IMG/VR virus record: IMGVR_UViG_3300032313_001035
DNA length: 64,000 nucleotides
Reading direction: 5' to 3' (one strand)
Source: a virus
Of the stretch, positions 45,064 through 61,875 are shown piece after piece. The translations under genes and the position numbers were made by a program. Below the pieces are notes generated by a model. The model did no database searches and was not told the DNA's origin. It saw only the letters and a list, made by a program, of their open reading frames with translations. The stretch's first letter is position 1. Each line of letters starts with the position of its first letter.

Positions 45064-45570
45064 ATGAGTGTATATTTTCTGGGTGATCCGCATCTGGGTC
45101 ACAAAGCAATCGGACGTTATCGTCCATGGGTTAAAGATAGTGCGGCGAACACTGCGCTTATTCATAAACTATGGCGTGACACGATTAAAAAGAGTGACAT
45201 CGTATATGTCATGGGCGATGCAGCATTCTCTGATGATGAACTCATCGCAATGGGCAATCTGCGGGGTCGTAAGATTCTCATCAAAGGCAATCACGATGAC
45301 TTTGTAAGCACTTCGCTACAGACTCAGGTGTTCGAAGAAATTCACGGCATCATCAAGTATAAAGCTATGTGGCTAAGTCATGCACCGATCCACCCTGCGG
45401 AGCTCCGTGGCAAAAAGAATGTGCATGGACACACGCATATGAAAAGCGTTCGTACTTGGTATGGAACTCTTGACAAGCGTTACTATAATACTTGTGTCGA
45501 TGTGGTTTACCCGAAGACTGGCAATATATTTGTGAATCTTGAAACGGTTAAAAGTTATTTTGGATTATGA
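45064..45570 (+). CDS. Calcineurin-like phosphoesterase
   Basis: GDPHLGH; MGD; KGNHD; SHAP; HGHTH. Confidence 0.88.
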   Translation: MSVYFLGDPHLGHKAIGRYRPWVKDSAANTALIHKLWRDTIKKSDIVYVMGDAAFSDDELIAMGNLRGRKILIKGNHDDFVSTSLQTQVFEEIHGIIKYKAMWLSHAPIHPAELRGKKNVHGHTHMKSVRTWYGTLDKRYYNTCVDVVYPKTGNIFVNLETVKSYFGL

Positions 45571-45779
45571 ATATTGGAGAGGAAATGAAAGATACAGTCT
45601 ATCAATCACTTTGGTATTCAGTTCATAAATTAGTTCGTGATGCAGTTTGGAGCTCGGTTCATAATAGAATTAGCGGTTCATTTTTACAATGCGGTCGGTT
45701 GACATTTAACGACTCTGAATTTAGTTCAGTCCGAGATACAATAAAAGAATACAAATACCAATCGTATGATTTTAAATGA
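45567..45779 (+). CDS. MNI/SV-repeat micro-protein family member
   Basis: MNIGEE..SLWYSVHKLVRDAVWSSVH..EYKY. Confidence 0.6.
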   Translation: MNIGEEMKDTVYQSLWYSVHKLVRDAVWSSVHNRISGSFLQCGRLTFNDSEFSSVRDTIKEYKYQSYDFK

Positions 45780-45981
45780 TGGTGTTGAAGATACCGTATG
45801 CTTTCATACAGGCTATCGTACAAGAACTGCGCTCATCAATGAACTTGGCTATGCCGTATGGAAAACTGGATTGACTGTTGTTAATCAGGCAAGTGAAGGT
45901 GTCATAACAAACGGTCTAGAGGTTCGTGGTGTATTAAATGATTGCTTCTCAGAACATGAAAATATATATTATAAATTTTAA
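45766..45981 (+). CDS. Diverged micro-protein family member
   Basis: Similar size, overlap and EHE end. Confidence 0.4.
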   Translation: MILNDGVEDTVCFHTGYRTRTALINELGYAVWKTGLTVVNQASEGVITNGLEVRGVLNDCFSEHENIYYKF

Positions 45982-45990
45982 AATTGACAT

Positions 45991-46233
45991 ATGAAATTAA
46001 CTCTTTTGACTTACAGTGCGTGTGGTCTCTGTTTTTCTCTCAAAAAAAGATTAGAAAAACATGAACTTGTCGTAAACACCTTACAATATACTGATCCTGA
46101 ATACTTGTCATTTTACAAAAAACATGGGGTGGAATCGCTTCCTACGTTAATTGTGGAAGATGGGGAGCATGTGGAAAAAATCACCAGTAACGATGACATT
46201 TTTAATTTTGTGGAAAACCATTTCAAATCTTGA
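45991..46233 (+). CDS. Thioredoxin/glutaredoxin-like protein
   Basis: CGLC; GVESLPTL. Confidence 0.75.
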   Translation: MKLTLLTYSACGLCFSLKKRLEKHELVVNTLQYTDPEYLSFYKKHGVESLPTLIVEDGEHVEKITSNDDIFNFVENHFKS

Positions 46234-46235
46234 GA

Positions 46236-46253
46236 TAAAAACCACATTACCAT
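46236..46253 (+). promoter_or_regulatory. TAAAAAC-box promoter
   Basis: TAAAAACCAC-AT-TACCAT; ATG 6 nt downstream. Confidence 0.7.
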
Positions 46254-46259
46254 ATCGCC

Positions 46260-46298
46260 ATGAATATTTTCTTCACCTCGCCCGAACCATTTCAATAA
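46260..46298 (+). pseudogene. Orphaned 5' remnant of the glycosylase-like gene (MNIFFTSPEPFQ*)
   Basis: Matches N-terminus MNIFATSNDPFQ of 47244. Confidence 0.7.
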
Positions 46299-46301
46299 TA
46301 A

Positions 46302-47165
46302 TTATTCCAGATATTTGAATGTGTAACCTTTGCAAGTTTTTGTCCTACCTGATAATTGATGTGAAATTTGTGCGGGATCACAATCAGTTTGATATCCCGC
46401 TTCTTTTATAGAATTGAATATTTTCCCATCGGATCTTATGATTTTTTTTCCATTTTTTCCAATTCTTGACAATGACATATTTTTGACATGAGACTCTGAA
46501 AATTTCATTCCAATTCTCCCCTTTGATATATTTTCTCGAATTTGATTTGATCTTTTTTGTCCCAGTAATGGATTTGGTTTGTTTTTTGTAATAAATCTCA
46601 ATTTCAATTCATTTAAATCAAAATCTTTTAAATAAAACCAAAATTTGTTATGTAAATTACTATAATTATGTTTAACTATTTTTTTCATTGTTACACACCC
46701 AAGAAATTGTGGTCCTATATGTGGATATTTTTTAGAAACCTCTGCAACATAATCAAAGTATTCAACCTCTCCCGTGATTATATCATAAGATACAATAGGT
46801 TTTCTATTTGGACATTGTTTTCCTTTATTATGCGGCACGATACCATACATTCCATTCATTTCTCCTACAGGACATGGCGTAGCGTGTTCTCTGCCATTGT
46901 AGCCTTTGTTGTACGAGTTGTGATAGTTTATCCAATATTGTTCTCGTTCTGCAAGCATTTCTTGATTGATATTTTGTTCAAGTATGATAAATTCAAAAGA
47001 TTCTTCTCCGTATTTGTCCCACGCTCTTTGGAGTTTCCTAGAGTGGTGTTCTTTTTTATTTAAACGTCTGATGTGCTCTGATTTTCTTTTGTGGAAAGTT
47101 CTGCCAGTAGCTCCAATGTAAAATTTTTTGTTGACATTACACTTCATCCCATATACTATGTTCAT
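46302..47165 (-). mobile_element. Free-standing GIY-YIG homing endonuclease with NUMOD3/NUMOD1-like domains
   Basis: IVYG...FYIG; REQYWI; KGYN; KFSESH; FNSIKEA; own TAAATA promoter. Confidence 0.88.
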
Positions 47166-47243
47166 ACACTTATATTTAACTTTGAATTCAAAAAATATTT
47201 TAATTACCTGCTTTTTATAAAAACTAAACACAATTATTGAACA

Positions 47244-47726
47244 ATGAACATTTTTGCAACTTCCAATGACCCTTTTCAAGCCGCAATGTGGCTGTGTGAC
47301 AAACACATGAAGCAATTATTAGAAAGCTGTCAAATGCTTTGCACAGCATTTCATGAGCAAGGCATTACCGCCCCTTATAAACCATCGCATCGTAATCACC
47401 CCAGTTCTATTTGGACACGTGCAAGCTATGACAATTTTCAATGGCTTATTGCACACGCTCACGGTATCTCAGAAGAATACACTGCTCGTTATGGTAAAAC
47501 ACATAAATCTAAAGCAGTTTTAGACTGGTGTGAGGACAACGCTCATAAACTTGGATTCGACACTATCGATCTTACTAAGTTTGCTATTGCAATCGCAGAA
47601 AACATGTTGTGTCGCAAGCATCCAGACTTCACCGAGAGTGACCCTGTTAACGCATACAGACTTTACTACAAATTAGACAAACAACATCTCCATGCTTGGA
47701 AACGAAACAGACCAGACTGGTTATGA
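47244..47726 (+). CDS. Pyrimidine-dimer DNA glycosylase/DenV-related protein
   Basis: MNIF..DP..CDKH..ESCQML; YKPSHRNHPSSIW; EYTARYGKTH; AYRLYY. Confidence 0.8.
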   Translation: MNIFATSNDPFQAAMWLCDKHMKQLLESCQMLCTAFHEQGITAPYKPSHRNHPSSIWTRASYDNFQWLIAHAHGISEEYTARYGKTHKSKAVLDWCEDNAHKLGFDTIDLTKFAIAIAENMLCRKHPDFTESDPVNAYRLYYKLDKQHLHAWKRNRPDWL

Positions 47727-47738
47727 AAAAATATAAAA

Positions 47739-48014
47739 ATGAAATCACAGATTACTAATATGACATTGCAACAAAAAATAGATGACTACCTTGAAGATGA
47801 ATCTATCTTACTCGCAGATGGATTTGATGAAGCGTTCATCGGGATTGCACGACAATTCACAAACCTATTTGCTGTGTATGATCGAGAGAAGTGTATCGAG
47901 ATTCTTACTGCTAATGGTATTACCGAAGACGAAGCTGAGGAGTATTTCCAGTTCAATGTCGAAGGAGCATACGTAGGAGAAAGCACACCTGCATTTTTGA
48001 CGAGATTGTCTTAG
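47739..48014 (+). CDS. Conserved phage hypothetical protein
   Basis: ADGFDEAFIG..AVYD..EEYFQFNVEGAYVGESTP. Confidence 0.7.
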   Translation: MKSQITNMTLQQKIDDYLEDESILLADGFDEAFIGIARQFTNLFAVYDREKCIEILTANGITEDEAEEYFQFNVEGAYVGESTPAFLTRLS

Positions 48015-48114
48015 TTCTACGCAAGGAATTTAAACTGACATTATACAAATGAATTTTAAGAAAAGGCAAACGAATGCATCTTACATTCAGTCGCAAAATT
48101 TTATCATTTGATAA

Positions 48115-48132
48115 TAAAAACCACACTACAAT
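48115..48132 (+). promoter_or_regulatory. TAAAAAC-box promoter
   Basis: TAAAAACCAC-AC-TACAAT. Confidence 0.7.
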
Positions 48133-48160
48133 AACGACATCGATTTGAACACAAAAGAAT

Positions 48161-48454
48161 ATGTTTAATTTATTCACAATTTTGATTGGTTTATTATTAT
48201 TCAATGCTGGTTATTATTATATGCCAATGATTGGAATTATTTTAATGTTATTGGGTGGATATATCTTATCTCGTCTGATGGCTGGTGAATCGAATACACC
48301 CATTTACTTTTTCATTGGGTTGAGCATGTTAGTTCCATCGTGTTTTATGTTGGTCTCATTCTTTGAAAAAAATCAATTCGAATATTCTCAAACATTCAAA
48401 TATCTACTGTGCCTTTGCGGTGCAGTCACTACATGGTTATCAGTAAAAAAATAA
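48161..48454 (+). CDS. Small multi-pass membrane protein
   Basis: Several hydrophobic segments. Confidence 0.6.
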   Translation: MFNLFTILIGLLLFNAGYYYMPMIGIILMLLGGYILSRLMAGESNTPIYFFIGLSMLVPSCFMLVSFFEKNQFEYSQTFKYLLCLCGAVTTWLSVKK

Positions 48455-48458
48455 AAAT

Positions 48459-48968
48459 ATGCACGAAATATACAATCCATTAAACTTACTAGGCAAAACT
48501 ATTGAAGTATCTTATCATCAAGACGATCTTGGAGAATACGCTAGAGTAATTGAAATCGAAGCAATTGACGGCGAAAGAGCTTTCGAAATAGTATTCGACA
48601 AATATCCAGAAATTGAAGATGATGAAAGATTCATTTGGACAACTCAAGAACCTTTTGAATTTGTTAATGGTAAAGCATGCTTCGATAATATTGGACACAT
48701 GCGTAGAATTTTCTTGACATTGAAAGAACCACATGATAATGTCGAAACAGAACAAATCACAACAGCAAACACAATGAAAACAACAATTAAAGAATTGAGT
48801 GAAAAATTAGGAGTGGATTCAGTTTACGTAAATGGTTTTATTCAAACCCTTTTGAAAATTAAAAAGGCTAGAATCGTAGGTAAGGTGGAGAAACCAAGTG
48901 GTGGTAAAGGAAAACCATCAAATATTTATGAGATCGATGATATTGATAACCTTCTAAAGGATCGATAA
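48459..48968 (+). CDS. Hypothetical protein with C-terminal winged-HTH (internal start 48774)
   Basis: MKTTIKELSEKLGV...GKGKPSNIYE; internal promoter 48714-48742. Confidence 0.55.
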   Translation: MHEIYNPLNLLGKTIEVSYHQDDLGEYARVIEIEAIDGERAFEIVFDKYPEIEDDERFIWTTQEPFEFVNGKACFDNIGHMRRIFLTLKEPHDNVETEQITTANTMKTTIKELSEKLGVDSVYVNGFIQTLLKIKKARIVGKVEKPSGGKGKPSNIYEIDDIDNLLKDR

Positions 48969-49002
48969 AACAACTCATAATTGAAAGTAAGATATTGCCC
49001 TT

Positions 49003-49317
49003 ATGGTTGAAAAAAAATTAGCACTACACGAAATAAAATATTATCACGATAATGATTTAGGATTTGTCTTTTTGGGTAATACTCCATCATCGGATAGCAG
49101 CATTCAAAAATTAGCAGATTTTTTGGTATCCATGGGTGTTTCTCAAAAATTACCAGAATGCTATATTAGGGTATCACCCACTGTTACTGCTTTCATATAC
49201 GCTAAAGATTCTGGATACAAGTCTGGAGCGTTTTATCAAGCTTGTCAACGAGTCGAATTGCGTGGTGTTTATCGCGTAGAATCGTTGGGATATTTTTTGG
49301 ATAATCTTGCAAAGTGA
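49003..49317 (+). CDS. Hypothetical protein
   Basis: ORF. Confidence 0.5.
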   Translation: MVEKKLALHEIKYYHDNDLGFVFLGNTPSSDSSIQKLADFLVSMGVSQKLPECYIRVSPTVTAFIYAKDSGYKSGAFYQACQRVELRGVYRVESLGYFLDNLAK

Positions 49318-49335
49318 TAAAAACCACATTAAAAT
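49318..49335 (+). promoter_or_regulatory. TAAAAAC-box promoter
   Basis: TAAAAACCAC-AT-TAAAAT; ATG 6 nt downstream. Confidence 0.7.
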
Positions 49336-49341
49336 TGCACC

Positions 49342-51282
49342 ATGATAACGAACTTAGCAGCATCACCTATTTATACACAAGGTATTGACCATGACCAAAT
49401 ATCTTCCATGGATATGGATTTGGAAGGTATGAAACAAGCATGTCAAATTTTCCGCGATAATATCTATACCGATAAAATCTTGGCAGTTGTCCGTGAATGG
49501 ACGTGCAATGCGGTGGATGAGCATGTGAAACATAATATCAATAAACCTGTCAGAATAGGTATCGTCGATAGTAAATTCTTCGTCAGAGACTTTGCAATGG
49601 GTCTTGATGACAATGGCATTCGAAATATTTTCGGTAAGTATTTCCGTTCTACCAAATCTAATTCTGATCAACCGATTGGTGGATTTGGTGTTGGTGCAAA
49701 GGCTGGTCATTGCTATAATGACGTATTTTACGTCACATCATTTCACAATGGTCTCAAAACCCAATACTCTTGCATTTTGGGTGGCGATGAATCGGGAGCA
49801 TCGATTGGTCAAGTTATCGAATTGTCTCAAGAACCCACAACTGAAAGTGGTTTGTTGGTAGAGATTGATTTGAATAATCACTACGATACAAGAATTTTCT
49901 ATGATAAGATGAAGAAAATGCAGAAGTTTATGAACTCCTGCCCAGTAGAAATTTTTTGGCAAGGTAAAATCGACGATGCGTTTGAAAAGACATTCATCTT
50001 TGAAAAAGATGGTATCAAAGTCTACAACATCAAAGATACTGAAAATGAAAAGTATTTTATTACTATGGGTGGTGTTTATTACAAAACCCCTGATAGCTTC
50101 AAGAATTTTTCTTTTAGAAATAGTATAACCCCACATACGCATAATTATATTCAGATCGATGTTCCTATTGGATTTTTCGATGTTCCGATTTCCAGAGAAT
50201 CATTTAGAGATGGGCAAAAATTTAAAAGTAACATTGAGAAATGTGAGAAAATAATGTTGGAATACTTTGAAAGTGAAAAGTCTTCTTTGAAGAAACTAGA
50301 CATTTTCGATATTATTAATGATGTTCCAACCAATACTCAATTTTTTAACTATACAAAATCCAACTTCATGGCAGCTGATTTGGTCATGGCGTTGTTTAAA
50401 ATCGGTAGTGTTGGTGATAACACATCACCTTTTATCATGGATAAAAAATCTGTGGTGGTTGCTACAGTATCCAATCACTATGCCCACAAGCATAATCAAA
50501 TCGATAATCTTACTAAGTTTGCAAAAGAAAATAATTTTCGGATTTTAACTATTTCTGAAAATGATGCCTACACCACAGCTGGCACTTTGAGCAAACATGG
50601 ATTGGATGGAGTGTTGAAATTCAAAAAATGCCGATCAGTATTACCTAAAAATAAAACATCCAAGTTGGATGATGGCACATACAGTATCTATCGTCGTGGT
50701 TATGGTAATCATATTCGTCTTACACCTTTGGAATTACATAACGCTTATCAAGGCACTAACCACATGACAATAGAGGAAGTGCAGGGATATATCGAAGATA
50801 TATTTGATAACGGTGATATGTATAGCATTAAAAAAATTGTCATGACTGATAACGGATTTATCGACAAATATTCTTTTAGAAGTAATAAACTCATACAATC
50901 TTTGAAATCCATGGGGTATTACGAATTTACCGATGCTGAATATTCATCTCGTAGATCAGAACTCGAAAGAGAACACGCTAAAATCTATAGTGAATTTGAA
51001 ACATTATATAATAATTATACTAAAGTTAGAAAGTTTTTGTCACCAACGACTAGATCTTTATTGGATAAAAAATCCAGTGATAGTAAAAGTTCTTTTATTA
51101 AAAAATATTCTTGCCGCATAAAAGATTTCAATAATATCATCAGTAATTATATTAATACTGAAGATGTCTCAGCTAAAATCTTGTTGCAATTATTGACACA
51201 ATCTCGATATGTTGATATTCCTTATACGGACATCAAAAAAGTTCTCAAAGTTGCTAAAAAAAATATTGACATCGTCAAATAA
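49342..51282 (+). CDS. rIIA: RIIA-like protein (GHKL ATPase N-terminus)
   Basis: IYTDKILAVVREWTCNAVD; VRDFAMGL; STK..IGGFGVGAK; ISRE. Confidence 0.88.
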   Translation: MITNLAASPIYTQGIDHDQISSMDMDLEGMKQACQIFRDNIYTDKILAVVREWTCNAVDEHVKHNINKPVRIGIVDSKFFVRDFAMGLDDNGIRNIFGKYFRSTKSNSDQPIGGFGVGAKAGHCYNDVFYVTSFHNGLKTQYSCILGGDESGASIGQVIELSQEPTTESGLLVEIDLNNHYDTRIFYDKMKKMQKFMNSCPVEIFWQGKIDDAFEKTFIFEKDGIKVYNIKDTENEKYFITMGGVYYKTPDSFKNFSFRNSITPHTHNYIQIDVPIGFFDVPISRESFRDGQKFKSNIEKCEKIMLEYFESEKSSLKKLDIFDIINDVPTNTQFFNYTKSNFMAADLVMALFKIGSVGDNTSPFIMDKKSVVVATVSNHYAHKHNQIDNLTKFAKENNFRILTISENDAYTTAGTLSKHGLDGVLKFKKCRSVLPKNKTSKLDDGTYSIYRRGYGNHIRLTPLELHNAYQGTNHMTIEEVQGYIEDIFDNGDMYSIKKIVMTDNGFIDKYSFRSNKLIQSLKSMGYYEFTDAEYSSRRSELEREHAKIYSEFETLYNNYTKVRKFLSPTTRSLLDKKSSDSKSSFIKKYSCRIKDFNNIISNYINTEDVSAKILLQLLTQSRYVDIPYTDIKKVLKVAKKNIDIVK

Positions 51283-51304
51283 TCTGGTAATATATAAACA
51301 CAAT

Positions 51305-52315
51305 ATGAAATACATCATCAACGAAGTTGGAGTGGTTCTCTTCAAAGACGGTAAACCCACTAAAATCGAAAACACAGACAAGCGATATGCGCGAGTCATT
51401 GCCGCTCTTAAATTACCTCTCGGTGAACAAGATGCTGCTATTGATGAAGCATTGGTGAATATCAACTTTAATAAAGATATTGAATCGAAAGGATTTTGTG
51501 TGAATTATTCGACTGGTGAAGTCACCTACAAAGGTGAACATCTACCTACTCCTCTCGCACAAAAAGTTATGTCACTGATTGAAGAAAACCTTCCTGTCAC
51601 TTTGTTGGAGCGTTTTTGGGAAAATCTTAAACTCAATCCATCTTACAATTCAATTCGAGAATTATATGATTTCCTTGCTTATAAGGAATTGCCTATCACA
51701 GAGGATGGTTGCTTCTTGGCATATCGTGGACTGCGAGAAGATTATTATTCCGTCAATGGCAATACTTCAACTAAAGTGTTGCAAGGAATGGTGGATTCAC
51801 AAGGTCATATTTATAATGGTGTGGGAGAACATATCGAAGTATTTCGTGGAGATGTTGATGATGATCGAAATCATCATTGCTCACAAGGTATCCATGCTGG
51901 TTCGTATGACTATGCTAAAAACTGGTCTCGTGGCAAATTGGTTGTCGTTAAAATCAATCCTAAAGATGTCGTAAGTGTTCCATCCGATTGCAATTGTCAG
52001 AAACTTCGTTGCTGTGCTTACACGGTTATTAGCGAAATTGAGCACGAAATCAAAGATATTGCCACCGACGAAAACGGTGAAGGTATTACTGATGAAGATT
52101 ATTCGGAAGAAGCAGCACAACGTTATATCGTAATCGATAGAGTTGATAAATATATTTCACGTAAACGTGATCAAGGTGTTAAGACATTGACACTTAAATC
52201 GATACAGAGTTGTTTCTCTCCTGATTGTCCTAGCACAATTGAAATCATTGATGCTTTAAATTATCTCGGTCTTGTATGGAGATTTGAGGGTAACTCTAAA
52301 GTTGTTGATATTTAA
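51305..52315 (+). CDS. rIIB: RIIB-like protein
   Basis: NPS..ELYDFL..LPITEDGCFLAYR; CSQGIHAG; NPKDVVSVPSD..KLRCC. Confidence 0.92.
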   Translation: MKYIINEVGVVLFKDGKPTKIENTDKRYARVIAALKLPLGEQDAAIDEALVNINFNKDIESKGFCVNYSTGEVTYKGEHLPTPLAQKVMSLIEENLPVTLLERFWENLKLNPSYNSIRELYDFLAYKELPITEDGCFLAYRGLREDYYSVNGNTSTKVLQGMVDSQGHIYNGVGEHIEVFRGDVDDDRNHHCSQGIHAGSYDYAKNWSRGKLVVVKINPKDVVSVPSDCNCQKLRCCAYTVISEIEHEIKDIATDENGEGITDEDYSEEAAQRYIVIDRVDKYISRKRDQGVKTLTLKSIQSCFSPDCPSTIEIIDALNYLGLVWRFEGNSKVVDI

Positions 52316-52317
52316 TC

Positions 52318-52878
52318 GTGAAATTTTGTCGGTATTGTATCATGAATGTAATACTTTGCTTGCCTGTAGTTGGGCAAGCAAAGTATCTCGAATCTGGTAT
52401 AGCTTCTATTTATTCAGTGAATACTAATGGTGGAACTATCACAGCATCTGGTATACCACTCAAAGATAATGATTTAACCGCTGCACATAAAACATTACCA
52501 TTCGGTTCTTACGTTAAGGTAGTGTGTGCAAAAACTAAAAAATCAGTAGTAGTTAAAATAATTGATAGAGGACCATATATGAAAGGTCGTGTTATCGATT
52601 TAACACCCGCAGCAGCACAGGCTATAGGACTAGATCGAAAACGTGGTATTACCAAGGTGACTTTATACAAAGATGTTCCTTCTTTATCCAATTCCAAAAC
52701 TAAAGCTTTGAAAGTAACCCCTGCGAATGGAGCACCTTTTGTTGATACAAAACCTCAAAATGAAACAGAAACCGTGAAAAATAATAATTATAAATGGGTA
52801 GTAGTGCCATTAGTTGTGGTATATGTGATATATCAAATTAAAAAATGGTGGACAAATAAAAATAACGTGGTAAAATAA
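52318..52878 (+). CDS. RlpA-like DPBB lytic transglycosylase with C-terminal TM helix
   Basis: GIASIY..TASG..LTAAHKTLPFG..IIDRGPY..GRVIDLT. Confidence 0.88.
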   Translation: MKFCRYCIMNVILCLPVVGQAKYLESGIASIYSVNTNGGTITASGIPLKDNDLTAAHKTLPFGSYVKVVCAKTKKSVVVKIIDRGPYMKGRVIDLTPAAAQAIGLDRKRGITKVTLYKDVPSLSNSKTKALKVTPANGAPFVDTKPQNETETVKNNNYKWVVVPLVVVYVIYQIKKWWTNKNNVVK

Positions 52879-52884
52879 AATTTT

Positions 52885-53127
52885 ATGAAAACAGTAAACG
52901 AAAAAACAAATAGAAAAAATAAGCAGTGGCTCAGGAATCCAGATCAACGGAAGAACAAAAAATTGTTTAACGTTCAGATGGTGCAAATGAAAGATGGTTC
53001 TTTCCATATTCTTGGTGGTGGAGCTAGAGTGGAAATTGGTGTGAATCAACATCGTTCTGAATGGGTAAATGTTGATGTTCGCGACCTAGCGACTGAAATG
53101 CGATTGAATGGTGTTCGTTCTTTTTAA
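52885..53127 (+). CDS. Hypothetical protein
   Basis: ORF. Confidence 0.55.
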   Translation: MKTVNEKTNRKNKQWLRNPDQRKNKKLFNVQMVQMKDGSFHILGGGARVEIGVNQHRSEWVNVDVRDLATEMRLNGVRSF

Positions 53128-53901: not shown

Positions 53902-53919
53902 TAAAAACAACATTAAAAT
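53902..53919 (+). promoter_or_regulatory. TAAAAAC-box promoter
   Basis: TAAAAACAAC-AT-TAAAAT. Confidence 0.65.
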
Positions 53920-53932
53920 AACTGCGTAACAT

Positions 53933-54097
53933 ATGAATAAAAATACACGACAAGCACGTAATGCTGGTTTCGCCAGTAAAAAAGACCAGAACAACAATGG
54001 CACTAGAATCTTTGCAGGTTCGAACTGTGATACTAGCTGGGATAATCCCAACAGTAAACACCGCAAGCGCAAGCAATACGGTCGTCAACCAGCATAA
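53933..54097 (+). CDS. Small basic protein (54 aa)
   Basis: MNKNTRQARNAGFASKK...KHRKRKQYGRQPA; between promoter and tRNA. Confidence 0.5.
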   Translation: MNKNTRQARNAGFASKKDQNNNGTRIFAGSNCDTSWDNPNSKHRKRKQYGRQPA

Positions 54098-54105
54098 TCA
54101 CTATA

Positions 54106-54179
54106 ACTTCGGTAGCTCAGATGGACAGAGCACAGCATTGATAAAGCTGATGTCGTTGGTTCGAATCCAACCCGAAGTT
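54106..54179 (+). tRNA. tRNA-Ile(GAT), imperfect
   Basis: ACTTCGG/CCGAAGT; loop TTGATAA; A:A at the loop-proximal anticodon-stem pair; no encoded CCA. Confidence 0.75.
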
Positions 54180-54189
54180 TCATATTTTT

Positions 54190-54669
54190 ATGAGTAATTA
54201 TTCTATAGAACGTGGTGATGCTTTAGACTATGACCCAAGCAAACAAACTTTGATTGCTCATGTGGTCAATGATAAAGGTTTGTGGGGTGCTGGATTTGTT
54301 GTCGCTATTTCTAATAAATGGACACAACCTGAAACTTACTATCATCGTTACATAAAAAATGCAATTGATAGTAATCGATCTGTTTTAGGTGAAGTTCAAT
54401 TTATTGATGTTGAGTCGTGTGTTACTATAGGTAACATGTGTGCGATGTCGGGAGTCTACAATCACAATAACAAAACACCGTTGTGTTACGATTCTTTGAG
54501 AAAATGTCTTATTACTCTAAGAAAAAAAGCCGAAAGAGATTCTTTCGATATTGTTCAGATGCCTCAGATTGGTGCGGGATTAGCTCGTGGTGATTGGAAT
54601 ATTATTGAAAAAGATATTAAAGATATTTTTTTCGGTTCTTCTGTAAATGTCATAATTAAAATTTTATAA
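54190..54669 (+). CDS. Macrodomain protein
   Basis: GDA; IAHVVN..GLWGAGF; MPQIGAGLARGDW. Confidence 0.88.
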   Translation: MSNYSIERGDALDYDPSKQTLIAHVVNDKGLWGAGFVVAISNKWTQPETYYHRYIKNAIDSNRSVLGEVQFIDVESCVTIGNMCAMSGVYNHNNKTPLCYDSLRKCLITLRKKAERDSFDIVQMPQIGAGLARGDWNIIEKDIKDIFFGSSVNVIIKIL

Positions 54670-54670
54670 T

Positions 54671-54913
54671 ATGGATATTGAAGAAATATTCTACCCCAAA
54701 GAAGTCGAATCTCTCCTGAGCGATCTTTGGGGTACTATGAGAAATGCGCCAACAGAACGTTGGCAAATGCCTCGGACAACTGGTTTCCAACGTCTTGTTG
54801 ACTTTCGATTATGGCGTGGTATAATTCAAGAACAAATCAACAGCAATGCTTCAAACAGAACTAAATCGCCTGACATCAGGACTATATTGCCTACCCATAC
54901 GGAAGCTTCGTGA
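54671..54913 (+). CDS. Small hypothetical protein (possible diverged micro-gene)
   Basis: MDIEE start. Confidence 0.4.
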   Translation: MDIEEIFYPKEVESLLSDLWGTMRNAPTERWQMPRTTGFQRLVDFRLWRGIIQEQINSNASNRTKSPDIRTILPTHTEAS

Positions 54914-55061
54914 TGAGTTGTGGGAGGATGTAATACAGCTACAATTAAATGATGATATAGACGATATTGTACATGATAATGTTAGAAGACGGTCATTATT
55001 AAGCCACATTGCTGGGAACATAGGTTGGGAATTATTTGAAAGAGGACAAAATGAAAGATAA
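54846..55061 (+). CDS. Small hypothetical protein (possible diverged micro-gene)
   Basis: [17 protein letters not shown] periodicity. Confidence 0.4.
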
Positions 55062-56157
55062 TAAAAATAATATGAAAAAAGCTATTATAACAGGCATCAC
55101 AGGTCAAGATGGATCTTATCTCGCTGAACTATTACTTGAGAAAGGTTATATTGTTCATGGAATTAAAAGACGTTCATCTTCCTTTAACACACAACGACTC
55201 GATAAATTCTTCGAACATCCTAACCTCCACCTGCACTATGGCGATCTAACTGATTCGAGTAATCTAATAAAGTTGATTGCTGAAATTGAACCAGATGAAG
55301 TATACAACTTAGGAGCACAATCTCATGTAGCTGTATCATTTGATTTACCAGAATATACTGCTGATGTTAATGCATTAGGTACACTGAGATTGCTCGAAGC
55401 GATTCGTTTTCTCAAACTTGAGAATAAAACTCGCTTCTATCAGGCATCGACATCTGAACTATTCGGCTCATCTGAACCACCCCAATCAGAACTAACACCA
55501 TTCCATCCTCGATCTCCGTATGCAGTATCTAAGCTCTATGCGTACTGGATTGTTAAGAACTATAGAGAAGCATATGGAATGTTTGCGTGTAATGGTATAT
55601 TGTTCAATCACGAATCACCTCGTAGAGGAGAGACATTTGTAACACGAAAGATTACTCGTGGTATTGCAGAGATCTCTCTTGGTGTTAAGAGCGAGCTACG
55701 ACTCGGTAATCTTGATGCTAAACGCGATTGGGGTCACGCAAAGGATTATGTATATATGCAATGGTTGATGCTTCAGCAAGATCATGCTGAAGACTTTGTC
55801 ATTGCGACGAACAAACAAATCTCTGTTCGTGAATTTGTTCGCATGTCTGCACGTGAGGCAGGTATGGAACTGGAATTTCATGGCGATGGGATTGAGGAGA
55901 CTGGGATTGTCAAATCCATACTTGATGATCAGAAAGCCCCAGCAGTTAATGTAGGGGACGTTGTTATAAGAGTCGATGCTCGTTATTTCCGACCAGCAGA
56001 AGTGGAAACACTCTTAGGCGATCCTTCTAAGGCAAAAGAAAAACTTGGGTGGTCTCCTGAAATTACTGTGGAGCAAATGTGTGCGGAAATGGTTGCTTCC
56101 GATCTTGCAGAATTACGCCGACATACCCTCCTTCAAAATTATGAGCATCGAAAATGA
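55051..56157 (+). CDS. gmd: GDP-mannose 4,6-dehydratase
   Basis: [17 protein letters not shown]; LGAQSHV; [10 protein letters not shown]; [16 protein letters not shown]; RDWGHA; RPAEV. Confidence 0.97.
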
Positions 56158-56338
56158 AATCACTGGATCATTCATCTTAAATGATTTGTTATATGCAATG
56201 AGTGGAGCTTGTCTTGACCGTTTGTCTGCTAAGAGTTACCCTGATAATCTTCACACTGATGTATGGTATGCAGTCGACTGGCAAGTGAGAAGTGCAATCC
56301 AAAATGAGATGAGAGAATATGAGCACAGCATCAAATAA
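56141..56338 (+). CDS. Micro-protein family member
   Basis: [26 protein letters not shown]. Confidence 0.6.
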
Positions 56339-56519
56339 TATATTTATTCCAAGTTCTTTGCCAGATGAGGCATGGACAATTAAAGATATTATAAGTGAGC
56401 AGTTCGAATTTGATCTTATATTTGATATCTGCGATGCTCTTAAACTTGATGACAATGGGGATATTTTCTGGATTCTGAGGGGAGAGGTCTTTTATAACAA
56501 ATCGATTATAACAAAATAA
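56319..56519 (+). CDS. Small hypothetical protein in micro-gene array
   Basis: Overlapping ORF of the same size. Confidence 0.45.
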   Translation: MSTASNNIFIPSSLPDEAWTIKDIISEQFEFDLIFDICDALKLDDNGDIFWILRGEVFYNKSIITK

Positions 56520-56521
56520 AT

Positions 56522-56743
56522 ATGAAAGAAATTCCCAAACATATACCAATCTATAGCACCGTTTGCGATCTTGAATTTAACGCAATTCATGGTAGTATTC
56601 GTAAACATGTTAGAGATAGCATTCATCACGAAACACGCTATGATATAGATGATAAGTTGGATTGGATTGTCTCTGATGCCATATTCGTCTCTGTGAGTAA
56701 TAATGTAAATGGGACACTACAAGATTATGAATTTAAGAAATGA
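56522..56743 (+). CDS. Micro-protein family member
   Basis: SIRKHVRDSIH..SVSNNV..QDYEF. Confidence 0.55.
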   Translation: MKEIPKHIPIYSTVCDLEFNAIHGSIRKHVRDSIHHETRYDIDDKLDWIVSDAIFVSVSNNVNGTLQDYEFKK

Positions 56744-56942
56744 ATTGGTTATAAACCAGATAATAAGGAACAATATGGCGAGTATGAAGGAATCTATTGC
56801 CGCATCCCTCCGCGAAATCACTATGAATAACATCTGTGTAGCAGTGGGATATGGATCAGTCAATGGCGATGTTGTCAATGCGTGTGTTACGATCAACACC
56901 AATATACGCGAGGAAGTAAAAGAGTATGGGTATAGTAAATGA
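56727..56942 (+). CDS. Micro-protein family member
   Basis: MNLRNEL..AVGYGSVNGDV..KEYGY. Confidence 0.55.
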   Translation: MNLRNELVINQIIRNNMASMKESIAASLREITMNNICVAVGYGSVNGDVVNACVTINTNIREEVKEYGYSK

Positions 56943-57132
56943 AATAGATGACTCAGTTAATGGCTCAGTTAGTGACTCAGTTTATGACTCAGTTCATGAC
57001 TCAGTTCGTAACTCTGTTCGTTACTCAGTTATTGACTTAGCTTATGGTACAGTTTGTGGCTCAGTTCATAGCTCAGTTCGCAACTCAGTTCATAACAATG
57101 TAGAGAGTGAAATAGAAGGGTATGAATATTAA
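56926..57132 (+). CDS. SV-repeat micro-protein
   Basis: xSVx tetrapeptide repeats. Confidence 0.7.
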   Translation: MGIVNEIDDSVNGSVSDSVYDSVHDSVRNSVRYSVIDLAYGTVCGSVHSSVRNSVHNNVESEIEGYEY

Positions 57133-57450
57133 AAAGAAAATAGTTGACTCAGTTAATGACTCAGTTGGTTTCTCAGTCTGTATCTCAGTTAATAGATCAG
57201 TTTATAAGTCAGTTTGGGTCTCAGTTTGGAGCTCAGTTAGAGACTCAGCTTGGGACTCAGTTAATAACTCAGTTCATAGCTCAGTTCGTATTAGTGTATC
57301 GAGAGAGATAAAAGAGCATGGATATAGTAAATGAAATAGATGACTCAGTTAGTGACTCAGTTTGTGACACAGTTATTGACTTAGTTTATGGTACAGTTAG
57401 TGGCTCAGTTTGGGGCTCAGTTCGGGACTCAGTTTGGGGCTCAGTTCGTA
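56950..57450 (+). repeat. 12-nt NNCTCAGTTNNN tandem arrays (cluster 1)
   Basis: About 23 exact CTCAGTT heptamers at 12-nt period in three ORFs (manual count). Confidence 0.92.
57122..57334 (+). CDS. SV-repeat micro-protein
   Basis: xSVx repeats. Confidence 0.7.
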   Translation: MNIKKKIVDSVNDSVGFSVCISVNRSVYKSVWVSVWSSVRDSAWDSVNNSVHSSVRISVSREIKEHGYSK

Positions 57451-57494
57451 TTAGTGTATCGAGAGGGATAAAAGAGCATGAATATCGGAAGTGA
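57318..57494 (+). CDS. SV-repeat micro-protein (58 aa, chimeric; not in ORF track)
   Basis: MDIVNEIDDSVSDSVCDTVIDLVYGTV...SVRISVSRGIKEHEYRK. Confidence 0.7.
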   Translation: MDIVNEIDDSVSDSVCDTVIDLVYGTVSGSVWGSVRDSVWGSVRISVSRGIKEHEYRK

Positions 57495-57681
57495 AATAAA
57501 TGAAGATGTGTATAATCTTGTGTGGGAGAATATATGGCGAGAATGCAGAAAACCAATCATAGATCAAATGTCATCACTCGCACAGGTCAACACATATGAT
57601 TCATTGGGATCGGTAATCGATGATACACTAAGAGGCAATATCAGTATAGAAGTTGTTATTAAAATGAGGGATAAAATATGA
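57478..57681 (+). CDS. Micro-protein family member
   Basis: MNIGSEINEDVYNLVWENIW. Confidence 0.6.
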   Translation: MNIGSEINEDVYNLVWENIWRECRKPIIDQMSSLAQVNTYDSLGSVIDDTLRGNISIEVVIKMRDKI

Positions 57682-57697
57682 ATATTAATATAACTGT

Positions 57698-57715
57698 TAA
57701 AAACCACTTTATGAT
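57698..57715 (+). promoter_or_regulatory. TAAAAAC-box promoter
   Basis: TAAAAACCAC-TT-TATGAT; ATG 6 nt downstream. Confidence 0.7.
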
Positions 57716-57721
57716 TAAGCC

Positions 57722-58273
57722 ATGAAACTTTTTTGGGACATAGACGAAACACTCATCCACACAAAGATGAATCCATTCAAGCCAGAATGGAATTGCGAAC
57801 TCCTTGTATTGGATGATTTTGTTCACTATACCCGCATCAGACCATGCGCTCGCGAATTAATCGAATACAGTAGAACTCTTTTCGGTGGCGAAAATGTCTA
57901 TATCTTGACGGCAGCAACTCATCAGTATGCTAGAGAAATCAGTCGTGTGGCTAATTGGGGATTTACTTCGGAGCAAATCTTTGCGCGGGAAAATGTGGAG
58001 CAATACACGCACCGATCATCAGGTGGTTGGGGCGCAGAACGTGTGCAAGTTACTGCACATCCTCTTGCTCATCCCGACAATATCTTGATTGACAATCTGC
58101 CCCCAGAGTGGAATGAAGAAAAAACGTCTTTTATGTTGATTAATCCCAAGACCAACTACTTGAAAGTTAAGGATTACTTGGGCGACAATACCGATGAAGA
58201 TATTTTTCGCGATAAGGTAAAACACTTTTTGAAAGAAAAAGCGAAAAATAATTTGACAAACTGTGAGAAATAG
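57722..58273 (+). CDS. HAD-superfamily phosphatase (FCP1/NIF-like)
   Basis: WDIDETLIH; IRP; LTAA..YA; ILIDN. Confidence 0.8.
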   Translation: MKLFWDIDETLIHTKMNPFKPEWNCELLVLDDFVHYTRIRPCARELIEYSRTLFGGENVYILTAATHQYAREISRVANWGFTSEQIFARENVEQYTHRSSGGWGAERVQVTAHPLAHPDNILIDNLPPEWNEEKTSFMLINPKTNYLKVKDYLGDNTDEDIFRDKVKHFLKEKAKNNLTNCEK

Positions 58274-58327
58274 TTTACTAAACTGTTTGGAAGATGGGGT
58301 GGAAATGCATATCCTTTCAATAGAAAT

Positions 58328-58852
58328 ATGGCAAAACGAAAAGGTATAAAATCAAAATTCCCAGAAATAATTTCATATTGGGAAACCAAAATATACGAAG
58401 GTGATATCGGGGTCGATTGGTGTGATGCTGATGAAAGATGTTGGAGATGTGGTTATAAAGCCAGATTAGAAAAATGCCACATCATACCACACTCTTTAGG
58501 TGGTGTGGATGAGGTTTCAAACTTAGTATTATTGTGTAATAGATGCCATAAAGAAGCACCGAATTCAACCGACAAAGAATGCATGTGGGAATGGATTAAA
58601 GCTACCAAGGTAGCATTCTATGATATATTTTGGGCTCAACATGGACTGGAAGAATATGAAAAAATTTACAACACAAAAATCATCAATGATTTGAAAAATG
58701 TTGATTTGACAGATTCTAAAAAAATTAGAATGGTAGTTAGACGATCTTTTGAAAATGTGTCTGTTCATTATGGGACAGGGAATTATAACACATCAACAGT
58801 TGCCTCAATAATAAAAAATATCACAAAAAACTTGACAAACTGTGAGAGATAG
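58328..58852 (+). mobile_element. HNH endonuclease
   Basis: CWRCG..EKCHIIPHSLGG..SNLVLLCNRCH; flanked by a direct repeat. Confidence 0.85.
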
Positions 58853-58860
58853 TTTATATT
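58832..58860 (+). promoter_or_regulatory. Sigma70-type promoter (duplicated at 58254)
   Basis: TTGACA-17nt-TATATT. Confidence 0.7.
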
Positions 58861-58867
58861 TCTCGTG

Positions 58868-58973
58868 TTGCCACATTCCAGCCTCCGCAATGAGGGCATT
58901 CAAAACGTAACGTGCATTAAGTCTACCTCTCCGTAATGAATGAGCGACCTGATCGGGGGTTGGAATGTGGTAA
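58868..58973 (+). ncRNA. Putative 106-nt small RNA closed by a 20-bp stem
   Basis: TTGCCACATTCCAGCCTCCG / CGGGGGTTGGAATGTGGTAA with 3 G:U pairs; inner CATTCA/TGAATG; starts 7 nt after the -10. Confidence 0.7.
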
Positions 58974-58988
58974 AAACTACATTATAAT
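58971..58988 (+). promoter_or_regulatory. TAAAAAC-box promoter
   Basis: TAAAAACTAC-AT-TATAAT. Confidence 0.75.
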
Positions 58989-59020
58989 ACAAGTATGCCA
59001 GAAAAAAAAATCACAAAACA

Positions 59021-59587
59021 ATGAAAACATATACAATAAAACTACACGGTTACTGCACTGAAGCAAGAATCTATGAACTTGATCAAGATGCCGCTGAATA
59101 TTGGAATAATCTTCTAATAGTTGGCGAAGACGAAAGTCTTTATGAATATCTTGAGGGAGAAGCGACTGATCATTCACCAGAAGCTGACTTTTTGAATGGC
59201 GAGGATCAATTCGATGCATCGAGTCTATATGCCACAACTACATACATCGATACCGCCCAAGCTAGAATCAATGTTCAACATGGCGACGAAGAAGTTCTTA
59301 ACATGGTATTGAATGAGGATGATGTTAATATCGAATGGGTCGATGGTGATGAAATGCCAAGTCCAGCACTGCTGGTATCTGATTATTCAAAAGGGGTATT
59401 TTTCCAAACAGATTTGGAGCTTGATGATGAAAAAACATTTGACAAATCCAAACTTAAAGTTATTCTAAGCGAGGAAGATGAAGGTGAGGCATTCATAGGA
59501 GTTTCTTATGATGGTGTTGAACTGGAATTAGACGATTTCTTCTTGACAGGAAAAGGAAGAACATACACAATTACGAATCTTGACTAA
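59021..59587 (+). CDS. Acidic hypothetical protein
   Basis: SKGVFF..FDKSKL..VSYDG..TGKG. Confidence 0.55.
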   Translation: MKTYTIKLHGYCTEARIYELDQDAAEYWNNLLIVGEDESLYEYLEGEATDHSPEADFLNGEDQFDASSLYATTTYIDTAQARINVQHGDEEVLNMVLNEDDVNIEWVDGDEMPSPALLVSDYSKGVFFQTDLELDDEKTFDKSKLKVILSEEDEGEAFIGVSYDGVELELDDFFLTGKGRTYTITNLD

Positions 59588-59593
59588 CCAAAT

Positions 59594-60616
59594 ATGGAAA
59601 ACAAAGAAACAAAAGATATGACAGAAAAAGTGGAAACTGCTATGAAACAAAAAATCGACAAGCTCACACCTGAGCAGGAAGCGAAGATGCCTGAGTATGT
59701 CCAGAAATGGATTAACATTGGTATTAACACTGATCGTCTTGATCCAGTTCGCACACGAAAAACGATTGATCAGTATCGTGCGTTGATCAATAGACCAGTA
59801 GATGTGCCATTGATTATCCTTAATAACCCTCTTGAAGCATGGGCTGCATGTCATCTCATTACCAACTTTGGTGTTAAGATCGAAGATCTCGATGCAGAGC
59901 TTGATGATGTATTCAATGGTAATCCTAAGAAGTATGATATTCCCCCTGCACAACTTCCATGGCAGTCTGGCTCATTCTTCGCTGCGACCTTTAGCTTCTA
60001 TGACTTTATGTTTGAAGAAGTAGGTGTGGAGATTGATGCCGAACTCTATGCTAAGTATAAGACATGGGAAGCAACTTCACAAATCGGTTGCATCTACCCT
60101 ATGGAAGAGTATACCATTGTAAGTGAAAAGCCTACAGAGATTCATCTCAATGCGGAGAATCGTCTGCATCGTAATGGTGGTGCTGCTCTAACTTATGCTG
60201 GTCGTGGTAATCTTAAAGTGTATTCTCTCAATGGTGTTCGTGTGCCAGAATATATTGCTGTTACGGATGAAGAGAAGCTCGATCTTGATTATTACAAGAC
60301 TATTGCAAACGCTGACGTTAAAGCAGAATTTGTGAGGAAGGCGGGGATTGAACGCTTTAAGTCTCTTGGCAAACTTCTCGACACATATGAAAACTATATT
60401 GGTGCTGAGTATGAATGGTGGCATAAGAGTCAGTATGAACTCTGGGATATGGAAGCTATCTTTGATGGCTTGAGCAGTGCGCCATATCTCTCTATGGTCA
60501 ATCAAACTACAGGTATCTTCCACTTCGAAGGTGTATCACCTGATTGCCAAGACCTCAAGAGTGCAATCAAACAGCGTCTCGGTGGACGCGATATGGTTAT
60601 CAAAGAAATTAAATAA
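59594..60616 (+). CDS. DUF6745-like protein
   Basis: IDKLTPEQEA..KW..IG; SEKP..RLHRNGGAAL..YSLNGVRVP; FEGVSP. Confidence 0.7.
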   Translation: MENKETKDMTEKVETAMKQKIDKLTPEQEAKMPEYVQKWINIGINTDRLDPVRTRKTIDQYRALINRPVDVPLIILNNPLEAWAACHLITNFGVKIEDLDAELDDVFNGNPKKYDIPPAQLPWQSGSFFAATFSFYDFMFEEVGVEIDAELYAKYKTWEATSQIGCIYPMEEYTIVSEKPTEIHLNAENRLHRNGGAALTYAGRGNLKVYSLNGVRVPEYIAVTDEEKLDLDYYKTIANADVKAEFVRKAGIERFKSLGKLLDTYENYIGAEYEWWHKSQYELWDMEAIFDGLSSAPYLSMVNQTTGIFHFEGVSPDCQDLKSAIKQRLGGRDMVIKEIK

Positions 60617-60648
60617 ATAAAACAATCAACAACGAAAGAAACAACAAT

Positions 60649-60984
60649 ATGAACAAAACAACAGTAATCCTACATGGCGAAGCTATGCTATTCCCAGCCG
60701 AACTGCCAGCAGACGCAGTTGAAATTAAGCCTACTAACAACGATCTGCATATTATTGCAGATAGTGAAACAACTGGCAATCACCATGTCGTTGATATGGT
60801 TGAAGGCACTAAAGTGTTTCGCTCTGGTGATCGCACATTCATTCGCAACTCTAAACCTACTCAGGTGCGTTGTGTGCATGCCAATCGTCACGATGCTATC
60901 GCTATGCCTCCTGGTGTGTGGCAAGTAGATGTACAGCAGGAATTTGATCATTTTGCACAAAACATGCGAGCAGTTCGTGATTGA
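60649..60984 (+). CDS. His-rich beta-strand partner protein of DUF6745-like gene
   Basis: HGE; ADSETTGNHH; HANRHDAI; QQEFD. Confidence 0.65.
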   Translation: MNKTTVILHGEAMLFPAELPADAVEIKPTNNDLHIIADSETTGNHHVVDMVEGTKVFRSGDRTFIRNSKPTQVRCVHANRHDAIAMPPGVWQVDVQQEFDHFAQNMRAVRD

Positions 60985-60999
60985 TAAACCTATAGAATC

Positions 61000-61039
61000 A
61001 AAGCGAGGAGTTTGTATTCTTATAAGCTCCTCGCTTTTT
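61000..61039 (+). terminator. Rho-independent terminator
   Basis: AAAGCGAGGAG...CTCCTCGCTTTTT. Confidence 0.85.
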
Positions 61040-61044
61040 GTTGT

Positions 61045-61275
61045 ATGAATATTAAAGAGGAAATAGATGTCTCAGTTAGAGACTCAGTTGATAACTCAGT
61101 TAGGATCTCAGTTATTGACTCAGTTTATGGCTCAGTTGATAACTTGGTTAATGGCTCGGTTAATGTCTTAGTTAGGAGCTCAGTTAATAACTCGGTTTAT
61201 CAATCAGTTTGGAGCTCAATTAGAGACTCAGTTAGTAACACTGTTAGTATTGCGATAAACGATTATGAATATTGA
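61045..61275 (+). CDS. SV-repeat micro-protein
   Basis: MNIKEEIDVSVRDSV..NDYEY. Confidence 0.7.
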   Translation: MNIKEEIDVSVRDSVDNSVRISVIDSVYGSVDNLVNGSVNVLVRSSVNNSVYQSVWSSIRDSVSNTVSIAINDYEY

Positions 61276-61612
61276 ACAGCATATTTATGATACAGTTTGG
61301 TTATCTAATCAATCCATACATCTCAGTCTTGAGATGCATACTCGTGTTGTAACTTCTCCTCTCTTATTTGACGCTGTACACAAAAAAATTAATGTGTTAG
61401 TATGGAGCGCTGTATCATCAGAAGTATATAGGAACGTTCGGGAGTGCATAGAAGAATATGAATATTGATAAGGAAATAGATCGCTCAGTTTGTGACTCAG
61501 TTAATGACTCAGTTATGAACTCAACTAGGAAATCGGTTCGGTTCTCAGTTAAGGACTCAGTTTGGAGCTCAGTTTTTGGTTCAGTTCGCCGCTCAGTTTG
61601 TGACTCAGTTAG
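61069..61612 (+). repeat. 12-nt NNCTCAGTTNNN tandem arrays (cluster 2)
   Basis: About 16 exact CTCAGTT heptamers in two ORFs (manual count). Confidence 0.9.
61265..61468 (+). CDS. Micro-protein family member (diverged)
   Basis: MNIEQHIYDTVW..LVWSAVSSEVYRNV..EEYEY. Confidence 0.65.
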   Translation: MNIEQHIYDTVWLSNQSIHLSLEMHTRVVTSPLLFDAVHKKINVLVWSAVSSEVYRNVRECIEEYEY

Positions 61613-61655
61613 CATTGCGATAAACGATTATGAATATGACAAAGCAATCAGTTGA
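61458..61655 (+). CDS. SV-repeat micro-protein
   Basis: MNIDKEIDRSVCDSV..NDYEY. Confidence 0.7.
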   Translation: MNIDKEIDRSVCDSVNDSVMNSTRKSVRFSVKDSVWSSVFGSVRRSVCDSVSIAINDYEYDKAIS

Positions 61656-61875
61656 ATATTGTGTTTGGAATAATGGTTGGCGTGACATTGATTTTTTGCG
61701 CATTGCATTAAGGGCAAATGCTGAAAATCATGTTGATGAAGAACCTTTGTATAAAATACAGATTAGTGTGCCACGAAATATTATTAATACAATTGGTGGT
61801 AATGTTCCATTTGCTGGCGGTTTTGAATTAAAGTCAACTCTTAACACAGAGCTAAGAGAGCGTAAATATAAATAA
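61630..61875 (+). CDS. Small protein ending the micro-gene array
   Basis: MNM start with the same overlap. Confidence 0.5.
   Translation: MNMTKQSVEYCVWNNGWRDIDFLRIALRANAENHVDEEPLYKIQISVPRNIINTIGGNVPFAGGFELKSTLNTELRERKYK

Follow-up and report, generated by a model that had tools for sequence, protein, structure and literature searches.

The stretch of viral DNA analysed here, 64,000 nucleotides (nt) of IMG/VR virus record IMGVR_UViG_3300032313_001035 (herein the window), is part of the genome of an uncultured T4-like phage and encodes, in arrays of overlapping plus-strand open reading frames (ORFs), a set of very small proteins built on a repeated tetrapeptide. We consider these mini-ORFs to be real genes for free-standing, single-helix forms of the repeat tract found within DUF6745 proteins, whose products would serve, in trans, a repeat-less DUF6745 protein and its conserved partner; we place the probability of this reading at roughly 0.6. 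A first-pass annotation, made from the letters alone, had missed the DUF6745 gene and its partner, which lie between the arrays, and its view of the mini-proteins as effectors generated from nothing gives way to this link: on its account, they are read as the variable tract of a widespread two-gene module, copied and detached from it. The argument is carried by direct observations, namely the homology of the mini-proteins to one another and to DUF6745 tracts, the linkage of mini-genes to DUF6745 genes, the turnover of the arrays, and silent sites that are frozen beside varying codons. Relatives of the window are coded L001 and so forth, and database proteins P0001 and so forth; mini-genes are named by their start positions.

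Mini-Gene Family

All 16 ORFs reported by the first-pass annotation are present, and the five described as near-pure xSVx repeats (56926, 57122, 57318, 61045, and 61458) are so. The mini-proteins, of ∼60 to 80 amino acids (aa), have a conserved head (MNIxxEI), a period-4 tract (x-S-V-x), and a conserved tail (IxEYEY). A hidden Markov model (HMM) built from the five pure members matches 45567 (E = 1e-8), 56522 (7e-7), 61265 (3e-4), and 56709 (8e-4) among 716 six-frame ORFs of the window, with no further match there under E = 0.05. Iteration of the HMM over the window and its relatives, with reversed-sequence decoys, unites the diverged members with the pure ones, as had been anticipated: 12 of the 16 ORFs match at E ≤ 4e-9 (top decoy 1.7e-7), the members gained being 57478, 56141, and 61630. 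The iterated HMM yields zero minus-strand matches and finds 60 intact units over eight loci, none of them on the minus strand. The proposal of one paralogous family of about 16 therefore holds for 12, homology not being demonstrable for 45766, 56319, 54671, and 54846, so that the real member count is ∼12, perhaps 13 to 14. Two of these four, 45766 and 56319, are conserved neighbours of members within the arrays; the 54671–55061 pair, put forward as weaker members, is unsupported (Table 1).

The hydrophobic period of 4 that had been noted is significant in 13 of the 16 ORFs (the 12 family members and 45766) and gives no signal in 54671, 54846, and 56319. It is exactly 4.0 residues in every family member, diverged ones included. 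A canonical coiled coil, with its heptad (3.5) or amphipathic (3.6) spacing, does not describe the tract: the 3.6-residue period is absent in 12 of 12 members (3.5 was not scored separately), and 45766 alone shows one. Searches of Pfam, PHROGs, NCBIfam, and PADLOC returned no meaningful family for the mini-proteins, the weak matches being compositional.

The Repeat Tract Inside DUF6745 Proteins

A profile of the mini-protein family matches 801 proteins at E ≤ 1e-3 among 1.84 billion. Most are 250 to 600 aa long, and 7 of the 10 top matches that were scanned have a C-terminal DUF6745 domain. In seven fused proteins that were aligned, the tract sits after the position matching residue 82 of the window DUF6745 protein; 120 to 260 repeat residues are inserted in the fused proteins, and none in the window protein. 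The repeat comes in several flavours: xSVx, xQVx (L006), xEVx (P0016), and xQLx (gp38 of prophage prophiGD102-1).

The window itself holds the two-gene module, a DUF6745 domain above its curated cut-off (PF20530 at 35.1 bits; cut-off 27) next to a gene for a partner of ∼110 aa. Of 59 phage and bacterial loci, which span many bacterial phyla, 43 have a partner homologue directly next to DUF6745. Arrays of mini-genes lie beside the DUF6745 gene in relatives whose DUF6745 proteins are 94%, 92%, 90%, 86%, 82%, 72%, and 27% identical to that of the window; L007, a phage with the fused form, has no free mini-genes. The mini-genes are thus a split variant of the DUF6745 tract and not a member in the strict sense, since they lack the covalent position inside the DUF6745 protein. 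Literature searches returned no paper mentioning DUF6745 and none relevant on the repeat motifs.

The database matches include a second architecture (P0028, P0073, P0083, and P0111), in which an xSVx tract is joined to a C-terminal domain of ∼70 aa with the motif FDGKxWRLH and with neither DUF6745 nor any Pfam family; one copy is present in a Nitrososphaerales metagenome-assembled genome (MAG). The DUF6745 type spans many bacterial phyla, with up to eight matches per genome. The eight come from a Marinacidobacterales MAG (L021–L029, L033), where seven loci hold DUF6745 and partner in copies of a ∼7-kb element that are 96 to 99% identical, pointing to a mobile element. Identity of the eighth locus, L033, is ∼88 to 90% over shorter stretches. 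A Dehalococcoidia MAG has three copies.

Structure Models of the Mini-Protein and Its Complex

The first-pass annotation expected small helical proteins, and the AlphaFold2 model of the 57122 protein is one helix spanning residues 3 through 65, with a predicted local distance difference test (pLDDT) score of 92 and a predicted template modelling (pTM) score of 0.44. The model of the DUF6745 protein has a pLDDT of 90 and, in the ESM Atlas, finds matches only among other DUF6745 clusters, including one from cyanobacteria that is fused to leucine-rich repeats. In a modelled complex of the 57122 protein with the DUF6745 protein, the interface score ipSAE reaches 0.86, whereas the best of three controls scores 0.00. 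Of 80 solved complexes, 58 attained this mark, as did 2 of 110 mismatched pairs, counts that apply only roughly here because our own alignments were used. Runs share at least 96% of contacts, and the pLDDT of the partner in the complex is 90. The modelled interface takes in DUF6745 residues 79 through 91, beside the point at which the tract of fused proteins is inserted. Helix and docking are modelled only, and the complex supports, but does not show, binding of the mini-protein to the DUF6745 protein.

The mini-proteins might instead act alone, as self-assembling helices, decoys, or inhibitors of host proteins, with only their ancestry in common with the DUF6745 tract. Array 1 (56141–57681) and the 45567 pair do not adjoin the DUF6745 gene, the second architecture joins the repeat to a different C-terminal domain, and the period-4.0 stripe could promote self-association. 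Against this stand three observations: arrays lie next to DUF6745 in relatives whose DUF6745 identity ranges from 94 to 27%, L007 has the fused form without free mini-genes, and the docking model scores 0.86, its controls 0.00. On balance, we think it unlikely that the mini-proteins work on their own.

A 12-nt Unit with Frozen Silent Sites

The proposed origin from a 12-nt repeat is borne out: the unit reads NNC TCA GTT NNN, and its codon use is unlike that of the rest of the window's genes. Serine is encoded by TCA in 87% of repeat units versus 20% elsewhere and valine by GTT in 92% versus 43%; the third base of the first variable (x) codon is C in 83% of units, versus 12 to 20% (GAC, AAC, GGC) in the other genes. 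Within each gene, the silent sites of the unit are homogeneous and variation is confined to the two x codons; over the window, 20 of 159 silent sites and 113 of 212 x sites depart from the majority base (Fisher p = 6e-17).

Which codons are frozen depends on the lineage: TCT in L003 and L005, TCA with GTA in L007, and AGC, TCC, TCG, TCT, or AGT in bacteria. It follows that the repeat is homogenised gene by gene and that, across lineages, selection acts on it as protein. CTCAGTT was rejected as a universal DNA motif under selection, the frozen bases varying between lineages. In most bacterial genes (L009–L048), nearly all variation falls at unit base 2 (G-N-C, giving D/A/G/V) and base 10 (N-GG, giving W/R/G), and the remaining 10 bases of the unit, silent sites included, are mostly or wholly invariant. 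In 9 of 15 genes tested, unit types follow one another in near-random order, and block duplication was accordingly rejected as the sole source of unit diversity.

Ratios of nonsynonymous to synonymous substitution rates (dN/dS) against L001, a check that the first-pass annotation had suggested, are 0.11 for DUF6745, 0.065 for the partner, and 0.18 to 0.47 for the diverged mini-genes. For the pure-repeat mini-genes they are 0.8 to 1.7, values that are rough because repeat alignments are ambiguous.

Confinement of variation to a few bases per unit with frozen silent sites, its concentration at bases 2 and 10 in bacteria, and the near-random order of units are also what might be expected of a targeted mutator, akin to a diversity-generating retroelement or of another kind, that writes the varying bases in place of ordinary mutation and selection. 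Three observations speak against it. No reverse transcriptase of family PF00078 was found in the contigs of five relatives, which are fragments, 9 to 51% complete. The A of TCA in the window and the A of AGC in the bacterial genes are frozen, unlike the sites of adenine-directed mutagenesis. Finally, L001 and L002, which were recovered from two samples, do not differ anywhere in a 21-kb stretch that includes 14 mini-genes, so the arrays are not rewritten in every generation. A mutator of this kind seems to us quite improbable.

Array Turnover and Recombination

Array content differs among close relatives, as a comparison proposed by the first-pass annotation now shows. The array that follows the partner gene has three repeat genes in the window, ∼9 in L001, and six to seven of other content in L057–L059. 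The recombination claimed for the arrays is indicated as well, by chimeric junctions. Of 30 nt in the head of 57318, 29 are shared with the head of 56926, and the tail of 57318 corresponds to that of 57122; the duplicated unit is therefore a “tail + head” junction flanked by repeat. Such duplicated junctions would be the product of unequal crossing-over between the tracts of neighbouring genes, to which the chimera points.

Overlapping Junctions

Neighbouring genes overlap as described in the first-pass annotation: the tail (…YEY-stop) of one gene and the head (M-N-I) of the following gene are written by the same bases (TATGAATATTGA). Consecutive ORFs within the arrays overlap by 11 to 35 nt, every overlap being 2 mod 3, and each following gene therefore lies one frame further on. 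The 2 mod 3 rule holds at 37 of the 39 overlapping junctions counted in the window and seven relatives, where an overlap of 11 nt is the most frequent. Terminal members, which have no downstream overlapping gene, lack the EYEY tail.

This geometry bears on two other explanations. Debris, in the sense of untranslated, frameshifted fragments of a once-long repeat gene, would accord with consecutive ORFs always standing one frame apart and with repeat DNA keeping several frames open by itself. Yet each unit possesses an ATG, a conserved head, and a conserved tail of its own, with the 60 intact units all on the same strand; the orthologues of diverged members are at dN/dS 0.18 to 0.47; and independent gene callers annotated the mini-genes in public assemblies. 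We regard debris as highly improbable. Programmed +1 frameshifting at the junctions, fusing the units into long repeat polyproteins, would likewise accord with the 37 of 39 junctions that place the next gene in the +1 frame and with their very similar sequence; however, the bases shared by the tail YEY-stop and the head MNI account for the frame rule with no need of frameshifting, and unequal crossing-over copies the junction. We give such polyproteins a very small chance.

Long ORFs in alternative frames or antisense also run over the repeats (57144–57311; 61418–61615, minus strand), with xTQL and xTEx periods and without heads, tails, or homologues. Dual coding by the +1-frame xTQL ORFs was discarded as a candidate, these being an automatic consequence of the 12-nt repeat, with heads, tails, and homologues only in the xSVx frame.

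A Proposed Mechanism and Its Weak Points

In the mechanism that we favour, the tract would have split off from the DUF6745 protein and multiplied in this phage lineage. The DUF6745 protein and its 111-aa partner would then accept, in trans, one or another of a dozen helices, giving a single virus an assortment of variant complexes. Tract length would change by slippage of the 12-nt unit, and unequal crossing-over between neighbouring tracts would copy the “tail + head” junction, whereby a whole gene is gained or lost.

Several points weigh against service to the DUF6745 protein in trans. The complex model may replay intramolecular packing, because fused homologues exist, and would then reflect likeness and not binding in the cell. 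The DUF6745 model itself has no match among solved structures (Foldseek best E 0.2; VIA-align best Z 4.3 over 61 residues), which need not mean a new fold. Cotranscription of the DUF6745 module with array 2 is doubtful because a terminator-like hairpin separates the partner gene from that array. Array 1 and the 45567 pair are 2 to 14 kb from the DUF6745 gene, with unrelated genes between. Conservation of the tail, finally, could partly reflect the start codon of the next gene embedded in it, as terminal members are without the EYEY tail.

Genomic Setting

The coordinates of the mini-genes and of the DUF6745 module are collected in Table 1. The hairpin between the partner gene and array 2, whose stem is conserved in L001 and L057, may terminate or attenuate transcription and thereby set how much array transcript is made relative to scaffold transcript. 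A gene in a position matching that of the 188-aa gene upstream of DUF6745 is found in L057 and L058, a likeness in position and length; the protein has no match among the loci compared, a set that did not include L057–L059.

Table 1. Mini-genes, DUF6745 module, and associated features of the window
Feature	Coordinates	Strand	Evidence and remarks
Mini-gene, partly eroded xSVx, 70 aa	45567..45779	+	Pure-member HMM 1e-8; iterated HMM 4.7e-20; period-4 z = 8.5; 10 kb upstream of main arrays
Overlapping small ORF, 71 aa, membership not demonstrable	45766..45981	+	No HMM match; period-4 p = 0.034; look-alike by eye at L059 4673-4873
Two unsupported ORFs, 80 and 71 aa	54671..55061	+	No HMM match, counterpart in relatives, or period-4 signal
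Diverged member, 65 aa	56141..56338	+	Iterated HMM 3.5e-13; orthologue L001 8346-8546, 66% identity, dN/dS 0.18; start overlaps end of GDP-mannose-dehydratase-like gene
Conserved small in-array gene, 66 aa, not demonstrably of the family	56319..56519	+	Orthologue L001 8527-8742, 34% identity, dN/dS 0.47; no HMM match, no period-4 signal
Diverged member, 73 aa	56522..56743	+	HMM 7e-7; iterated HMM 7e-13; close database relative P0039
Diverged member, 77 aa	56709..56942	+	HMM 8e-4; iterated HMM 4e-9; database relative P0104
Three near-pure xSVx mini-genes	56926-57132, 57122-57334, 57318-57494	+	Overlaps of 11 and 17 nt
Diverged terminal member of array 1, 67 aa	57478..57681	+	No EYEY tail; iterated HMM 1e-13; orthologue L001 6185-6409, 44% identity; period-4 z = 7.6
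Acidic protein, 188 aa	59021..59587	+	Directly upstream of DUF6745 gene; unmatched in Pfam and PHROGs
Repeat-less DUF6745 protein, 340 aa	59594..60616	+	PF20530 E 1e-8; phrog_31813; AlphaFold2 pLDDT 90; dN/dS 0.11 vs L001
Conserved 111-aa partner of DUF6745	60649..60984	+	phrog_27831 (function unknown); dN/dS 0.065
Hairpin with 17-bp stem, then T run	61000..61037	+	Terminator-like in scan; between partner gene and array 2; ends 7 nt before first ATG of array 2
Array 2	61045..61875	+	Pure 61045-61275, eroded 61265-61468, pure 61458-61655, diverged terminal 61630-61875
Terminal member of array 2	61630-61875	+	Orthologue L001 13109-13366, 69% identity, dN/dS 0.34

The window has a G+C content of ∼35% and three tRNAs, and encodes an rIIA homologue at 49342–51282. 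Accessory genes of early type surround the mini-genes, including those for a macro domain, a NIF-type phosphatase, an HNH endonuclease, and the tRNAs. The interval from array 1 to the DUF6745 module contains the HNH endonuclease gene (58328–58852), which is without counterpart in the relatives retrieved and probably represents a mobile insertion. Within the run of plus-strand genes, a minus-strand ORF (46302–47315) has an N-terminal motif that is GIY-YIG-like by eye and probably encodes a homing endonuclease. A GDP-mannose-4,6-dehydratase-like gene (55036–56157) terminates inside the start of mini-gene 56141; in L058, an epimerase/dehydratase gene lies directly 3′ of the array. A search of a cultured-phage collection gave no near-DNA match for the window and no match for a 627-aa ORF (35552–37435), for the window's DUF6745 protein, or, by tblastn, for a mini-protein, in whose case the low-complexity filter may mask matches.

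Comparison with Known Systems

The closest known forms are the fused DUF6745 proteins (PF20530; phrog_31813), among them P0001 (500 aa, phage contig L007), gp38 of the Mycobacterium abscessus prophage prophiGD102-1, and many bacterial copies. The window system shares with them the profile-detected period-4 repeat (x-S/Q/E-V/L-x), the 12-nt unit with frozen silent sites, the adjacent partner of ∼110 aa, and an EY-type motif after the tract. It differs in that its tract is encoded by a dozen stand-alone, overlapping genes, every one with a start, head, and tail of its own, and in that its DUF6745 protein is repeat-less. In prophiGD102-1 (L061), gp38 has ∼55 xQLx units and DUF6745, and the partner, gp37, is encoded upstream.

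A repeat-less DUF6745-like protein is also encoded by a cultured large phage, Microcystis phage Ma-LMM01 (L062), as gp174, which is 24% identical to P0004, a bacterial-type DUF6745 domain used as query; unlike in the window, the stretch viewed around it has no annotated mini-gene array. Bordetella phage BMP-1 has, in variable region VR2 of the nonessential gene bbp36, a fixed core and a short variable spacer in 9 to 20 copies, the number varying between isolates (PMC2884959); by description its unit differs from that of the window, being 24 bp (a 19-bp core and one of three 5-bp spacers).

Mycobacteriophage Tweety gp54, with Che8 gp57 and PMC gp51, is the product of a nonessential phage gene with 15 to 48 tetrapeptide repeats, in whose 12-nt unit third codon positions are invariant and variation falls on positions one and two of two codons (PMC2884959); changes in its repeat number tune counter-defence against the Phrann gp29/gp30 prophage system (PMC9262239). 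The 12-nt tetrapeptide unit with frozen third positions is as in the window. The repeat differs (A-A-x-x versus x-S-V-x), and gp54 is a single fused protein with no mini-gene array. Tweety gp54 (L060) has neither a DUF6745 domain nor any other Pfam family, and hhalign against the DUF6745 alignment gives a probability of 0.15%; the resemblance to the window system is therefore one of working principle only, that of an analogue and not a relative. Tweety, prophiGD102-1, and Ma-LMM01 are cultured and lend themselves to use as models.

Phages and mobile elements widely encode hypervariable tetrapeptide-repeat proteins, of which only the unrelated Tweety gp54 has a known role. By this analogy, an accessory, specificity-tuning role for the window system in host takeover or counter-defence is a reasonable if tentative guess. 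With the tract separate from its scaffold, each arm could be expressed, swapped, deleted, measured, or searched for targets singly. The system also illustrates a simple route to new small genes, by crossing-over between neighbouring repeat tracts, and poses the question of how silent sites stay frozen beside two varying codons per unit. Somewhat speculatively, the arrays and the DUF6745 module could form a split, multi-allelic specificity system, with a constant scaffold, a dozen interchangeable helical arms, and many complex variants per virion genome: a library-type version, working in trans, of the tunable counter-defence that Tweety gp54 exerts as a single protein.

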